A stretch of DNA of 5,206 bases from a virus (Duplodnaviria; Heunggongvirae; Uroviricota; Caudoviricetes), in the IMG/VR virus record IMGVR_UViG_2690316148_000009, one strand, 5' to 3'. Of this stretch, positions 113 to 5,206 are shown one piece after another. Each line of letters starts with the position of its first letter. Position 1 is the first letter of the stretch. A model generated the notes under the pieces. It was not told where the DNA came from and searched no databases. It was given only the letters and a program-made list of their open reading frames with translations. The translations under genes were made by a program, and so were the position numbers.

Positions 113-694
113 TTACCCTATAGGTGCTACTGGCCATTCAATATCCGGTGCAGTTGATGTATCAACACGGTTCAGCAACACCCGATACTTTTTCCAGGCT
201 TCCAGCAACAAGGTTTCTTTCTCCGTTGCGATCTCCAGATCCACAGCATCCTGAAGCGGCGCTATATGCTCACTGGCTACCTGCATCAGGCTGTTTTTTG
301 TTTCTTCCGCCTCCCGGATCCGGAACAGTTTTTCTGCTTCCGTATCCTTCACCCAGGCTGTGCCGTTCCACTTCTGAAACTCCCCTTCCGGGGATAACCA
401 GGTGACATTTTCCGGTAATGAGCCGAGTTCAGAAATAAATAACGCGTCGCCGGAAGCCACGTCATAAACCGTTTTACCCCGATGATCTTCAACGAGATGC
501 CACGATGACTCATCACTGTTGAAAACAGCCACGAAACCAGCCGGAATATCTGGCGGTGCAATATCGGTACTGTTTGCAGGCAGACCTGTATGAGGCGGAA
601 TATATGCGTCACCTTCACCAATAAATTCATTAGTTCCGGCCAGCAGGTTATAAATTTTTATGGTCCGTGCTTGTTCACTCATTCTGAATGCCAT
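113..694 (-). CDS. tfa: tail fiber assembly protein (lambda Tfa family chaperone)
   Basis: The 193-aa ORF begins [62 protein letters not shown]..., which I recognise as near-identical over most of its length to phage lambda Tfa (orf-194). Its ATG (694..692) overlaps the stf stop TAA (696..694) as TAATG, and a GTGAGG Shine-Dalgarno-like motif lies about 8 nt upstream. The position immediately downstream of stf is as in lambda. Confidence 0.9.
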
Positions 695-3600
695 TATGCG
701 AGCCTCACAATATAGTTAAATGCGATGTTTTTGACGGTGTTTTCCGCGTTACCAGCAGCGTTAACGGTGATGGTGTGTCCATGTGAACCAATCGCAACAG
801 AGTGCGTATGAGCACCAATACCGACAGTATGCGCGTGTGCACCCGCAGATGCTGCTGTGCCGGACAGTGAGTGTGTATGGTTTCCTTCTGAAGATGATTT
901 ACCTACCCATTGGGAGGTGCCACTGGTTAATGAGCCACTGATACCAACCTGATTAGTCCCGCTAACTTGAGTACTCCCTGCCGGAAACATTCCAGTAGGT
1001 TGACTCCCGCTATTCGTTCTGGGCCCAGTCTGACTATGTTGGTGGGCCCCAGCTGAACTTGTAGAGCCGCTCAGACTGTGCGTATGCGCCCCGGTGTTAT
1101 TCGTGGATTTAGTGCCGTAATCAAACGACGATGTGGTTTTCGTCCCCAAATCCGTACTGGATGCGCTGGCGCTGTGGGTGTGCGATTTAATGCCATCCTG
1201 TTCCTGAGACAATACGGCACGACCACTGGCGGGCTTGCCCTTAATCGTCCAGCCACGCATATCAGGGATCACGCCTGACGGATAAGCGGCTGCAAGTTTC
1301 GGGTAAGCAGATTTGTCAAAAGTCTGCCCCTGCATCAGGGCATAACCAGACGGAACGGTATCTGATGGCCACGGGATTGGTGCACCGACTGGATAAAACT
1401 CTGCAGGAGGATGAGCCGAGGTGTAAAGCTGCGCCCACGGCGACCAGTTTGCGTCGGTCGTATCCCGTCGTGAACGAATAAATGCCGGAGCATGAGCACC
1501 GCTTGTACCACTCCAGCCGATGAGTAACTCACCTTCGCCAACGGCTGTCATCCCTTTCAGGTGAATGATATTTCCATACGCTGTTGGATATCCGTTGTTA
1601 TACACCTCGTATAACTCAAGACCTGCTGCCCCCTGCGTATTGTCTGTCAGCGCGGCTACCCGACCTTTTGAAGCCAGATTAACTGATGATACTGCTGTTC
1701 CACCTGACGGTAGCGCCCCGATCTCTGATGCCGTTGGCTTATTTCTGGAGTTATAGTCCCTTCGCCAGCCAGGTGAATAATCTGTTCCGTGATTAATATA
1801 GGTAAACTGGGCGTTGGTTGTTCCGCCACCGCTGGATGTGGTCGGAGTGGTAATGCGGATCGTCATCGCTGACTTTATCCCCATTACTTCAATGACAGCT
1901 CCGGCGAGATGAATATTACCGCAGCCAGTATCAGTAATGATTTTATTATTGCCATAAGACCAGGAACCCTTGCACATCCAGTATGGATGGTTAAATGCTC
2001 CCTGAGAATCCAGCCACTCGATAAACTGTGCAGTCGTCCAGTTTCCTGTTGTTGTGCTTACTGACCCACCGAAGGCACGGCAGGCACCAATATTTTTCGT
2101 AAAGGTGTCTTTGCCAGGGATATCCGCACCGTTCTGATCTTTCTGCAGACGTTTCTCAGCATTGTCATTGGCTGCTTTTACTGCCTTTGGCGTTGCCGCC
2201 AGCGTTTCAGACGTGCTGTTGGTCGCGCTGCTTAGCTGGATTATCCCTTTCTGTGCTGTCGTTGCATCCTGTGCGGTGTATTTCCCGTTAGCCAGGTCAT
2301 ACGCGGCCTTAACGGCTTTTGGTGTTGCCGCCAGTGACTCGGAAGTGCTGTTAGTCGCACTACTGAGCTGTACTATCCCCTTTTTCGTCGTGCTCGCATC
2401 CTCAAGCGCCACGGCGGATGCAATATCCTCTGCCCGTTTTGCCGCTGTCTCAGCGCGCGTTGCTGCAGATTCCGCCGTACTTTTGCTCTGAGCTGCTGCC
2501 GTCGCACTACCAGCAGCCTCTGTCGCCTTCGTGGATGCCGTCGTGGCGCTGCCCTTCGCTGCTGACGCCTGTCTGGTCGCCTCATCTTTTGAAGCAGACG
2601 CCGATGATGCCGATGACGCCGCCGAACTGGCGGACGATGCGGCAGCCGTTTTTGAGGATTCTGCACGGGTTTCCGACGCTTTCGCGTTCGTTTCGGATGT
2701 CTTCGCTGCGGAAGCTGACCTCGCTGCTGCCGTGGCCTGCTCAGTGGCTTCGCCAGCCTTCGTTGTGGCTGTTGAAGCGGATGATGCGGCGCTTTCTGCC
2801 GATTTTCCGGCGGCGGTGGCACTGGCTGAGGCCTGCCCGGCACTTGTTGACGCGGCACTGGCAGATAATGCAGCCGCTGTTTTTGAACCTGCCGCAGCTG
2901 AGGCGCTCTGTCCCGCTGCTGTTTCAGAAGACTTAGCGTTCGTCTCGGACGTTTTTGCCGCCTTCGCGGAATTTCCTGCCGCCGTTGCCGAGGAAGCTGC
3001 ACTACTGGCACTTGATGATGCATTCGTTTCTGAAGATTTCGCTGCCTCTTTTGAGGCCGCCGCACCCCGTGCCGAGGTGGCAGCTTCTGACGCCTTCGTG
3101 GTCGCTGTGGATGCAGAAGTGGCTGCCGATTTTTGTGATGCTGCGGCATTCGTTTCTGACGTTTTCGCGGCACTGGCGCTGGTAGCTGCCGCGCTTTTTG
3201 ATGACTCTGCAGCAGCACTTTTTGCTGCTTCACGGGCCTTTGTCGATGCCGTTCCTGCGCTGGAAGACGCTGACTGAGCCGACGACGCGGCCTGTCCGGC
3301 TGACGTGCTGGCGGCACGTGCTGAGGCTGCAGCATCGGTTGCATGAGTTGCCGCCTCGCTGGCTGATTTTTTCGCGGCTGCCGTATTCTGTGCAACCGCG
3401 GAGGCGTTACGTGACACCTCTTCCACCATCTGCTCAAAGCGGCGCAGTGCCTCCGGTCGGACATCATCCTCCGTCATGGCACCGAGAAAATCATTCAGCG
3501 TACCTGGTCTGGAACCTTCATAGACGGTAATGGTCCCGGCATGTGAAGGCGGAAAACCTTCAACCAGCAGGGTGACGCTGTACTGACCATGCTCAACATC

Positions 3601-3753
3601 CATGCTGTAACGTCCGGCTTCATCCGGATTTTCAGAGGCCACCGTGTTCACCACCATCGTGCTGCTGGTTCGTCTGGCCTTCAGCACAATGGTGCAGTTC
3701 TGTACTGGTTTTCCTGTGCCATCTTTAAGCACGCCAGAAATTTTTACTGTCAT
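694..3753 (-). CDS. stf: side tail fiber protein (lambda Stf family), intact and mosaic
   Basis: The 1019-aa ORF has an N-terminus [22 protein letters not shown]... and a C-terminus ...[31 protein letters not shown] that match lambda Stf as I recall it. It contains a long Ala/Ser/Thr-rich region with reiterated KTSETNA-type motifs, a duplicated KGI(V/I)[11 protein letters not shown](S/T)[11 protein letters not shown] unit, and C-terminal GAHTHS/GNHTHS/GAHAHT/GSHGHT His-x-His repeats typical of T4 gp37-like fiber tips. A GGTGGA Shine-Dalgarno motif sits 5 nt upstream of the ATG. The gene lies between lom and tfa as in lambda. Confidence 0.9.
2164..2382. repeat. tandem direct duplication of a ~132-bp unit inside stf (second copy partial)
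   Basis: Plus-strand segments around 2171..2268 and 2303..2400 align with a 132-bp offset at high identity. They encode [29 protein letters not shown]... (Stf aa 458-501) and [29 protein letters not shown]... (aa 502-530). Confidence 0.7.
2419..3408. repeat. GC-rich low-complexity coding repeat region of stf (Ala/Ser/Thr-rich with reiterated KTSETNA-like motifs)
   Basis: Stf aa ~116-445 is dominated by A, S and T with recurring motifs ([55 protein letters not shown]). This degenerate repetition is what produces the long spurious ORFs in the other reading frames on both strands. Confidence 0.65.
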
Positions 3754-3764: not shown

Positions 3765-3800
3765 AATAAAAAAAGCCCGCAGCAGTGACGCCACGGGCTT
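3765..3800 (-). terminator. putative rho-independent terminator downstream of lom, immediately upstream of the stf RBS
   Basis: On the minus strand the sequence is AAGCCCG-(14-nt loop)-CGGGCTT, a 7-bp stem (3800..3794 paired with 3779..3773), followed by TTTTTATT (3772..3765). It lies about 105 nt after the lom stop codon. The 14-nt loop is long, so the actual structure may differ. Confidence 0.5.
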
Positions 3801-3904
3801 CAGGACAGTGTAACTTTACGTTTCCTCAAACGCAGTTCACCCCATAAGGTGGATGAACCTGCGTATCATAACAATATTTACAGAAGATAAATCGGCGTCT
3901 GTTG

Positions 3905-4504
3905 TCAGATACGGTATCCGATACCAACAATAAATGCATCCGTTCGCCAGTCACCACTACCGGAACCTTCATAAGCAAGGTCAATGGTCACGGATTCGGT
4001 CGGGTTAAACTGCACGCCAGCCCCCCACGCCAGAGACGTGTTGCTGTGGCGACCGTCATCACTTCCGGTCAGCACATCGTGCGTTTTCCCCTTGTTGTCA
4101 GTTACGCGGAGATAATCCCCGGAGAAAGTCGACACACGGCTGTAAGCCACACCCACCATCGCATACGCGCTGAACCATTCATTCACGCGTACAGACGGCC
4201 CCGCCATCACGCTGAACCAGCGGTTACGCACGGAATCTTCATGCCAGCGGGTATCGCTGTAGTGCGTTTTTTGCTCATCCTCAGCATTGGCATAACTGAA
4301 GGACGTAATCAGCCCCAGCGCGTCCGTAAACTCATAACGGTATTTCACGTTAATCCCGTTCAGATTATCGCTGCCGGGAGCGTTCGTACGGGCATGAAGA
4401 TACCCCGCGCTCAGTGTGGACTGATGTTCAGACGCCCATGCAGGCGCACCGGATACGGCCAGGCAAATGGCTGCGGACAAAATGGCTGCACAAACTTTAC
4501 GCAT
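3905..4504 (-). CDS. lom: Ail/Lom/OmpX/PagC-family outer membrane beta-barrel protein (phage moron, lysogenic conversion)
   Basis: The 199-aa ORF has a signal-peptide-like N-terminus MRKVCAAILSAAICLAVSGAPAWA followed by motifs shared with lambda Lom as I recall it (GINVKYRYE, SAYAM(V/A)GVA(Y/H)SR, AYEGSGSGDWRTD, GIGY near the C-terminus). A GAGAGG Shine-Dalgarno motif lies 5 nt upstream of the ATG. The position between J and stf is the same as lambda lom. Confidence 0.9.
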   Translation of the reverse strand: MRKVCAAILSAAICLAVSGAPAWASEHQSTLSAGYLHARTNAPGSDNLNGINVKYRYEFTDALGLITSFSYANAEDEQKTHYSDTRWHEDSVRNRWFSVMAGPSVRVNEWFSAYAMVGVAYSRVSTFSGDYLRVTDNKGKTHDVLTGSDDGRHSNTSLAWGAGVQFNPTESVTIDLAYEGSGSGDWRTDAFIVGIGYRI

Positions 4505-4525: not shown

Positions 4526-4552
4526 AATAAAAAAGGCGCCATTTCTGGCGCC
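4526..4552 (-). terminator. putative rho-independent terminator downstream of J and upstream of lom
   Basis: On the minus strand the sequence is GGCGCCA-GAAA-TGGCGCC, a perfect 7-bp GC-rich stem (4552..4546 paired with 4541..4535) with a GNRA-type tetraloop, followed immediately by TTTTTTATT (4534..4526). It begins about 20 nt after the J stop codon. Confidence 0.6.
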
Positions 4553-4571
4553 CGTATATGGGTTATAAAAT

Positions 4572-5206
<635 letters not shown>

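Follow-up and report, generated by a model that had tools for sequence, protein, structure and literature searches.

Phages lambda, T4, P2, Mu and P1 are a textbook example of mosaicism by exchange of tail-fiber segments (PMC3945230), and engineered chimeras of the lambda and P2 Stf proteins are functional. Amongst the closest described systems is the Stf of Ur-lambda, encoded by orf-401 and orf-314 and accompanied by Tfa, whose N-domain forms a dodecameric collar at the gpV-gpM junction and whose residues 102-393 have been modelled as a trimeric coiled coil, followed by a hinge (residues 394-422) with angles of 107-134 degrees, a distal shaft (residues 423-525) and a tip that binds OmpC (PMC12617516). 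Receptor-binding proteins of the T4/lambda type have been treated as a family by Magaziner & Salmond 2022 (PMC9659904). The Mu S' protein (gp52) is represented by the crystal structure 8JU3, released in 2024 (Mori et al. 2024, Virology 593:110017, as cited in PMC11821841), and an atlas of tail fiber structures describes mobile 'pyocin knob' and gp34-distal pseudo-domains, the function of which it gives as undetermined (bioRxiv 10.1101/2024.10.28.620165).

We report the analysis of a side tail fiber locus within a stretch of 5,206 nucleotides of phage DNA, referred to below as the window. The genes, and the parts into which the fiber protein can be divided, are as follows.

113..694, minus strand: tfa, tail fiber assembly chaperone, 193 aa (PF02413, Caudo_TAP, E 4.6e-44)
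694..3753, minus strand: stf, side tail fiber gene, 1019 aa (open reading frame list and Pfam)
3905..4504, minus strand: lom, the context that fixes the lambda gene order (PF06316, E 1e-125)
3352..3753, minus strand: N-terminal anchor domain of lambda type, aa 1-134 (PF08400, E 4.3e-69)
2404..3411, minus strand: Ala/Ser/Thr-rich proximal shaft, aa ~115-450, lambda-like but ~95 aa longer (composition)
2149..2394, minus strand: two tandem PF03406 fiber repeats, aa 454-535, putative left recombination junction (Pfam, two stretches)
1714..2148, minus strand: D1 knob module of Mu S'/P1 Sv'/P2-like H type, aa 536-680 (match to 8JU3)
1399..1713, minus strand: D2 knob module, aa 681-785
697..1398, minus strand: collar-needle-head receptor-binding tip of T4 gp37/lambda Stf type, aa 786-1019 (2XGF, E 9.7e-82)
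880..1074, minus strand: hypervariable head of the tip, aa ~894-958, flanked by conserved His boxes (divergence among four Stf proteins)

From the open reading frames and Pfam, stf lies between lom and tfa in the gene order J-lom-stf-tfa of lambda, with tfa immediately downstream and the stop of stf overlapping the start of tfa at position 694; related loci carry the same annotation for this arrangement. In Stf, Pfam finds PF08400 (aa 1-134), two copies of PF03406 (best stretch aa 454-494) and PF07484 (aa 790-837), and aa 1-94 match the Stf N-domain in the Ur-lambda tail structure (9E7M_Ta, E 7e-47). The proximal shaft is 38% A, 23% S and 12% T; long open reading frames in other frames at 2373-3467 were rejected as genes, being by-products of the GC-rich codon bias of the Ala/Ser stretch, and a search for tandem repeats in the DNA of this shaft gave nothing meaningful.

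We consider it likely that Stf is an intact lambdoid side tail fiber built from exchangeable modules, in which the D1-D2 block is most likely shaft or hinge architecture and neither a specificity determinant nor a new fold. That the gene might instead be the decaying remnant of a defective prophage, its mosaic functionless, is suggested by the state of its relatives in E. coli, which frequently show damage: K-12 Qin retains nothing but a C-terminal fragment, in strain a7 J is truncated and an IS3 element lies upstream, and the ST131 copy adjoins a frameshifted J. We regard this as very unlikely here, for the window has unbroken open reading frames for stf, tfa and lom, each with full-length domain matches, and the isolated, plaque-forming phages PhiR68_2, PhiR26_1, PhiR42_1 and mEp460_ev081 carry the same architecture at 94-95% identity.

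Comparison with lambda by tblastn and blastn maps the breakpoints of the mosaic. At the protein level (tblastn), Stf aa 1-396 are 68% identical to orf-401 and aa 787-1019 are 70% identical to orf-314. At the DNA level (blastn), lambda-like sequence covers aa 1-295 (82% identity), 397-483 (79%), 495-526 (83%), 790-898 and 961-1019, together with tfa, and the last ~50 stf codons and tfa reach 93%; the second and third of these segments show both PF03406 copies matching the single repeat of lambda. With Ur-lambda the locus shares its position, the anchor, the coiled-coil shaft, a fiber repeat, the gp37-type tip and Tfa, the shared parts being 79-93% identical in DNA. Searches of lambda at the protein and DNA levels returned nothing matching aa 527-789, and the DNA search nothing matching the tip head at aa 899-960. 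Collinearity is lost through the lambda hinge and distal shaft (lambda residues ~394-530), where a segment of ~135 aa has been swapped for a block of ~260-290 aa that is absent from lambda and holds the second fiber repeat, D1 and D2.

The original prediction, of a mosaic with lambda-like ends arising by module exchange, is therefore borne out, and the central segment, which would be collinear with lambda Stf had no exchange occurred, is not so by either program. The region singled out as foreign, 1399-2121 on the minus strand, does translate to Stf aa 545-785, but its limits and those of its neighbours need revision. The N-terminal side is lambda-like well beyond the proposed aa 1-115, as far as ~aa 491, and comprises the anchor, the Ala/Ser-rich coiled coil and the first fiber repeat, including ~95 extra shaft residues; the proximal shaft is collinear with orf-401 except for an extra block at ~aa 296-396. 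The foreign block begins earlier than aa 545, at ~aa 527-536, or, with the second PF03406 repeat included, at aa 492. The C-terminal region is for the most part lambda-like, as supposed, but contains a second non-lambda patch, the tip head at aa 899-960.

The D1 module is 73% identical to the S' fiber of Mu/D108, with which it also shares an identical lead-in of 24 residues. Against the whole of Stf, 8JU3 gives an E value of 1.9e-85, with aa 531-715 aligned to 8JU3 residues 178-362, and phmmer matches the first knob domain of that structure (residues ~178-330) with a domain i-Evalue of 2.1e-69; the crystal structure covers D1 at ~73-80% identity. Upstream of this, aa 482-560 also match 5YVQ and 8JU3 in the constant region of Mu S. 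An AF2 model of aa 531-800, computed like all our models as a monomer of what is in reality a trimeric fiber protein, has a pLDDT of ~90 in D1 and finds 8JU3 as its best Foldseek match (E 5e-22, 250 columns, 50% identity), followed by the C-terminal region of T4 gp34.

It had been proposed that the central segment might be a fold not yet structurally characterised. Pfam, searched with D1 and D2 separately at E <= 10, does return no relevant family over aa 531-785, and D2 taken alone has no sequence match of its own in the PDB; the agreement of sequence and Foldseek searches on the solved 8JU3 structure nevertheless contradicts novelty for D1, and a novel fold for the segment is hardly credible. 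The three Cys residues noted in the segment are present (positions 558, 594 and 611, all in D1, the only other Cys of Stf being at position 20), and C594 and C611 correspond to residues ~243 and ~260 of 8JU3. Amongst 170 D1 homologues, however, the three Cys occur in 80, 139 and 154 sequences, respectively, C594 is replaced independently of C611, and a disulfide or metal-binding signature was rejected since the three show no covariation; judged from these alignments, they are no special signature.

D2 is more distant from known structures. Searched against the PDB with phmmer, its sole match was to flanking collar residues. Its model resembles the C-terminal domains of T4 gp34 and the knobs of the R2 pyocin fiber, with a mean pLDDT of 62 and 70-80 in the core of the monomer, and this model, itself of moderate confidence, predicts a putative knob fold like that of T4 gp34, R-pyocins and Mu S'. 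BLASTP against D108 S' gives a marginal match (27 aa, E 0.014). In hhalign comparisons of D1 and D2 with each other and with the second domain and tip of Mu, D2 matches the second domain of Mu S' at 93.6% probability over the C-terminal 31 columns only, so that homology across the whole domain is not established by sequence, whilst D1 and D2 show no relation to one another (4% probability).

The comparison with Mu also marks what the two fibers do not have in common. What D2 has in common with the second domain of Mu S' is limited to a C-terminal motif, the window Stf is without the distal tip domain of Mu ('MuTip', the last ~75 aa), and phmmer with the second domain and tip of D108 S' found neither in the window Stf. 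D1 is internal in a siphophage side fiber here, whereas in Mu it belongs to the distal half of a myophage fiber. In P1 Sv' and P7 Sv (C-segment), D1 and D2 follow one another as in the window Stf, with amino acid identities of 73% and 72% and matches spanning 94-97% of a 255-aa query, but in P1 ~64 aa are inserted between the matching parts, and what comes next is a Mu-like distal end with U' and no gp37-type needle. Against a purely structural reading of D1-D2, D1 falls in the variable (Sv') part of the Mu and P1 fibers, which overall sets host range.

The two modules are widespread and mobile. By tblastn, D1 matches P1, P7, Mu, D108, P2-like phages, SSU5 and T4-like vibrio and aeromonas phages, and the D1/D2 module is found in 1024 protein clusters (50% identity), arranged in many different orders and lying upstream of more than one kind of fiber tip; when D2 by itself was used in a word-indexed homology search, this added mainly short fragments and little diversity. 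The architectures include D1-MuD2-MuTip, D2-D1, D1-TIP, D2-TIP, D1-D2-MuTip and D1-D2-TIP, and the PHROG profiles contain both modules in either order. On the evidence of these arrangements, D1 and D2 evidently shuffle freely among hundreds of fiber families, exchanging position and partners in the manner of the mobile domains of the atlas, whose classes D7, D11, D40 and D73 would be candidate counterparts.

The particular combination in the window is likewise not new. Of 5426 complete E. coli genomes, 801 contain both of its mosaic junctions, and a mosaic found in ~15% of them is an ordinary one; hundreds of E. coli genomes and several isolated phages already have this exact fiber annotated, near-identical genes being named 'side tail fiber protein Stf' in PhiR68_2 (PV340576) and others. 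Fibers of the same architecture occur in PhiR68_2, PhiR26_1, PhiR42_1, mEp460_ev081, Salmonella phage SPF_0923 and the ST131 prophage, with DNA identities of 94-95% over the whole gene and 98-99.9% over the central block, and the StfQ remnant of K-12 Qin retains D2 and the tip at 98.9% identity. What sets them apart from the window Stf is the tip head (aa ~894-958), together with small shaft indels; in E. coli ST131, stf and tfa are separated by a macro-domain gene.

The junctions themselves lie in the fiber repeat on the left (…ATPKAVK…) and, on the right, in the 13 residues with which the collar begins, and the D1-D2 block may have been gained by homologous recombination at these conserved linkers. 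Within the window we found neither a gix site (best 16 of 26 bases) nor an e14 inverted repeat (best 11 of 16), both matches being at chance level, nor an invertible segment, nor any recombination-site remnant that would prove the route of acquisition. A pin gene lies downstream in PhiR68_2 and Qin; the window stops 112 bp past tfa, short of any such gene.

The tip (aa 786-1019; PF07484 Collar and PF03335) aligns end to end with T4 gp37 and shares with it the collar, the HxH motifs, of which the window Stf has seven, and an identical C-terminal stretch of 16 residues. The HxH motifs of T4 gp37 reportedly bind iron (Bartual et al. 2010). The head between the His boxes is unrelated to that of gp37, forming the divergent stretch of the alignment, and the chaperone is a lambda-type Tfa. 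When four Stf proteins of the same architecture were compared (the window, PhiR68_2, strain a7 and ST131 p4A), aa 492-893 proved nearly invariant, while aa ~894-958 could not be aligned, their sequence and length being completely different; the other differences were small indels in the Ala/Ser-rich shaft. With D1 and D2 near-invariant beside tip heads that differ completely, the variation in specificity probably maps to the tip and not to D1-D2, and the hypervariable head is the probable specificity determinant. Specificity within this family of Stf proteins would then be tuned inside a head of ~65 aa between His boxes, and since the head is unrelated in DNA to that of lambda, the window fiber need not share the OmpC binding of lambda.

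These results bear on the suggestion that the central module may alter receptor or host range. In its strongest form, the D1-D2 block would be a receptor-binding module that adds or changes a receptor, such as the LPS core, giving a fiber of two specificities. D1 does have its homologue within the variable Sv' region of the Mu G(-) and P1 C(-) fibers, the Mu gp51/gp52 fiber is stated to recognise a different region of LPS from that recognised by gp49/gp50 (PMC11821841), and the atlas leaves the function of mobile knob domains undetermined. Yet the distal domain of Mu S' is missing from the window Stf, D1 is never the C-terminal domain among the full-length matches inspected, and both modules keep 60-80% conservation in fibers whose tips are unrelated and whose phages have different hosts, in addition to their near-invariance among Stf variants with entirely different heads. 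For a conserved block that sits upstream of several different tips, the suggestion is weakly supported at best, and we think a host-range role for D1-D2 unlikely. A related idea, to which we give slightly less credence again, is that the knobs bind, at a lateral site, some conserved glycan of the envelope, the LPS inner core for example, making a second contact beside the tip; if true, it would explain the reuse of the same knobs in Mu, P1, P2-like, lambdoid and T4-like fibers.

Under the preferred reading, that of an intact modular fiber, the lambda-type N-domain would anchor the trimer to the tail, followed by the Ala/Ser-rich coiled-coil shaft of lambda type, the two PF03406 repeats and the knobs D1 and D2, and the C-terminal collar-needle-head tip would fold with the aid of the downstream Tfa. 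From their conservation and context, D1 and D2 may act as structural beads of the shaft or hinge, determining the distal arm's length and geometry and leaving the choice of receptor to the hypervariable head of the tip. A lambda shaft that tolerates Mu/P1-type knobs in place of its hinge and distal segment is also of practical use, as a natural template for fiber engineering.

The 1019-residue side tail fibre, Stf, lies within the following locus, as defined by ORF and domain searches:

J, 3' end: runs off the window end, minus strand
lom: 3905-4504, minus strand
stf, 1019 aa: 694-3753, minus strand
tfa: 113-694, minus strand

Translation of 1399-2121 gives exactly Stf residues 545-785, and cysteines occur at positions 20, 558, 594 and 611, the last three inside this segment, as originally predicted. 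When compared with lambda (NC_001416, 18900-22700) by tblastn, residues 1-396 are 68% identical to orf-401 and residues 787-1019 are 70% identical to orf-314; the DNA matches are listed below.

Stretches of Stf with lambda-like DNA (blastn)
aa 1-295: 82%
aa 397-483: 79%
aa 495-526, second fibre-repeat copy: 83%
aa 790-898: 81%
aa 961-1019 and nearly all of tfa: 93%

Residues 527-789 and 899-960 have no counterpart in this lambda reference by blastn. Since lambda matches lie on both sides of residues 527-789 and none within them, the mosaic described in the original prediction is real, though its limits must be redrawn: the lambda-like N-terminal side, placed at residues 1-115, reaches to about residue 491, the foreign central block begins 10-50 residues before the proposed start near 545, and the C-terminus, lambda-like as proposed, is not uniformly so, as it holds the second foreign patch at 899-960.

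In the reconstructed lambda frame, approximately 135 amino acids separate '…KAVKVVMDETNRK' from the 12-letter right-hand stretch. The cryo-EM/cryo-ET model of Ur-lambda Stf (PMC12617516) assigns residues 1-91 to a collar on the tail, 102-393 to a proximal coiled coil, 394-422 to a hinge (~124 degrees) and 423-525 to a distal shaft, which is followed by a gp37-like receptor-binding domain contacting OmpC. The replaced lambda residues fall at the hinge and distal shaft of this model and the exchange thus removes both. The preceding shaft of our Stf (residues ~115-450, window 2404-3411; 38% Ala, 23% Ser, 12% Thr) is some 95 residues longer than that of lambda, and relatives are set apart by small indels within it, such as a 22-residue deletion in E. 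coli a7. Long ORFs in other frames (for example, 364 aa at 2373-3467 and 248 aa at 2531-3277) were rejected as spurious products of the shaft's GC-rich codon bias. The PF03406 fibre repeat, single in lambda, is present as two tandem copies (residues 454-535, window 2149-2394), both matching one lambda DNA segment, and recombination at the left junction could plausibly have used this duplicated conserved repeat as its landing pad.

The central block comprises two modules, D1 (residues 536-680) and D2 (681-785). Residues 531-715 align with residues 178-362 of 8JU3, the crystal structure of the Mu tail fibre S' (gp52), with a domain i-Evalue of 2.1e-69, and D1 is 73% identical to S' of D108. The structure was released on 2024-02-28; PMC11821841, in its references, credits it to Mori et al. 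2024. An AF2 model of residues 531-800, built from a 40-sequence alignment, has a pLDDT of ~90 across D1 and ~70 across D2, and a Foldseek search of the PDB with this model returned 8JU3 first (E 5e-22, 250 columns, 50% identity), followed by several structures of the T4 gp34 C-terminal region. The earlier suggestion of an uncharacterised fold therefore fails for D1, which has a solved counterpart by both sequence and fold. For D2, neither Pfam nor PDB sequence searches gave a match, and it shares with the second domain of Mu S' only its last ~30 residues, bearing the motif '…IRSRRD…W..W.QLYT…P'; modelled separately, it folds with moderate confidence (mean pLDDT 62, core 70-80). From the sequence and fold matches to 8JU3, the central block is thus probably a pair of tail-fibre knob domains, the second of them putative.

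These modules are widespread. By tblastn the block is found in P1 Sv' (73% identity, 97% of the query covered), P7 Sv, Mu/D108 S', P2-like H proteins, SSU5, a T5-like vibriophage fibre and the long tail fibres of T4-like vibrio and aeromonas phages. A HMMER scan of the full 1.84 billion cluster representatives matched 1024 proteins at E <= 1e-3 (705 of these at E <= 1e-10), and a single protein could contain as many as six matched stretches. Mapping D1, D2, the Mu second domain (MuD2), the Mu tip (MuTip), the gp37-type tip (TIP) and the fibre repeat on 288 retrieved proteins revealed many arrangements, among them D1-MuD2-MuTip, D2-D1, D1-TIP, D2-TIP, D1-D2-MuTip, D2-D1-MuD2-MuTip and D1-D2-TIP, and within PHROG profiles D1 and D2 occur in either order. 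Such shuffling agrees with the 'mobile pseudo-domains' of a tail-fibre structure atlas (pyocin knob, gp34 distal domains), which assigned them no function. D1 and D2 are 60-80% conserved across fibres with unrelated tips. Among 170 homologues, C558 is present in 80, C594 in 139 and C611 in 154. At the sequence level the three cysteines are not a coupled feature: sequences that keep C611 can have Ala, Met or Ser at the C594 position.

We aligned four fibres of the same architecture, from the window, PhiR68_2, E. coli a7 and ST131 strain p4A. Residues 492-893 are essentially invariant, with three substituted positions, and residues ~894-958 (window 880-1074), bounded by conserved GAHxHS 'His boxes', differ completely in sequence and length. 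This head has no lambda DNA similarity by blastn, and it is here that alignment with T4 gp37 shows divergence. It lies in a tip with seven HxH motifs, of the gp37/lambda-type family described in PMC9659904. Judged from these alignments, the head is the likely host-range determinant, rather than the central segment for which that role had been suggested.

The exact mosaic, sought with a 1.2 kb query across both junctions (at least 80% covered), occurs in 801 of 5426 complete E. coli genomes. The whole stf, at 94-95% identity, is carried by the isolated lambdoid phages PhiR68_2, PhiR26_1, PhiR42_1 and mEp460_ev081 and by Salmonella phage SPF_0923; in these phages its annotation is side tail fiber protein, and tfa comes next. 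[quoted passage not shown]

We propose a functional lambdoid side fibre, in which a lambda anchor at the N end would be followed by a coiled-coil arm longer than that of lambda, a Mu/P1-type knob pair substituting for lambda's hinge and distal shaft, and a needle of gp37 type; the receptor is most likely picked by the needle's hypervariable head. Tfa would be the chaperone of the conserved C-terminus, given that the final ~50 codons of stf move with tfa as one unit, 93% identical to lambda. From conservation and context we infer that the knobs are structural and that the block was acquired by homologous recombination at the fibre repeat and collar; a secondary glycan-binding site on the conserved knobs is a candidate only, and an improbable one. 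No invertase crossover site was found in the window. Lambda recombination with the stf-tfa regions of Qin and Rac is known (PMC3945230), and engineered lambda-P2 Stf chimeras are functional. Lambda, T4, P2, Mu and P1 horizontally exchange side and long tail fibre segments, which PMC3945230 calls 'a well documented case', citing Montag 1989 and Haggard-Ljungquist 1992. Given this documented exchange, the described tip family, the D1 crystal structure and the many annotated identical fibres, the mosaic fibre is therefore already known.

The closest genome match, E. coli a7 (NZ_CP122496.1; L007, 348-3323), is 99.9% identical over the central 1.2 kb. There, an IS3-family element lies between a truncated J and stf, stf begins ~50 codons late and lom is missing; this stf copy is therefore defective, its fibre module identical. 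ST131 prophages with the same Stf (strain p4A, NZ_CP049085.2; L004, 2072-2974) have a gene for a 300-aa macro-domain protein inserted between stf and tfa, and on the far side of tfa they carry reverse-transcriptase-domain and SLATT-domain genes, an arrangement that resembles a defence locus placed at the end of the prophage. These three genes are absent from the window.

In the window, N runs at 4695-4744 (50 bases) and 4954-5049 (96 bases) break the apparent 3' end of J (tail tip), and the masked bases lower the apparent GC content there. On the minus strand lom is flanked by two strong terminator-like hairpins (3772-3801 with 13 stem pairs and 4534-4553 with 8, both ending in a T-run), one after J and the other after lom, directly ahead of stf, a layout that fits transcription of lom as a separate 'moron'.
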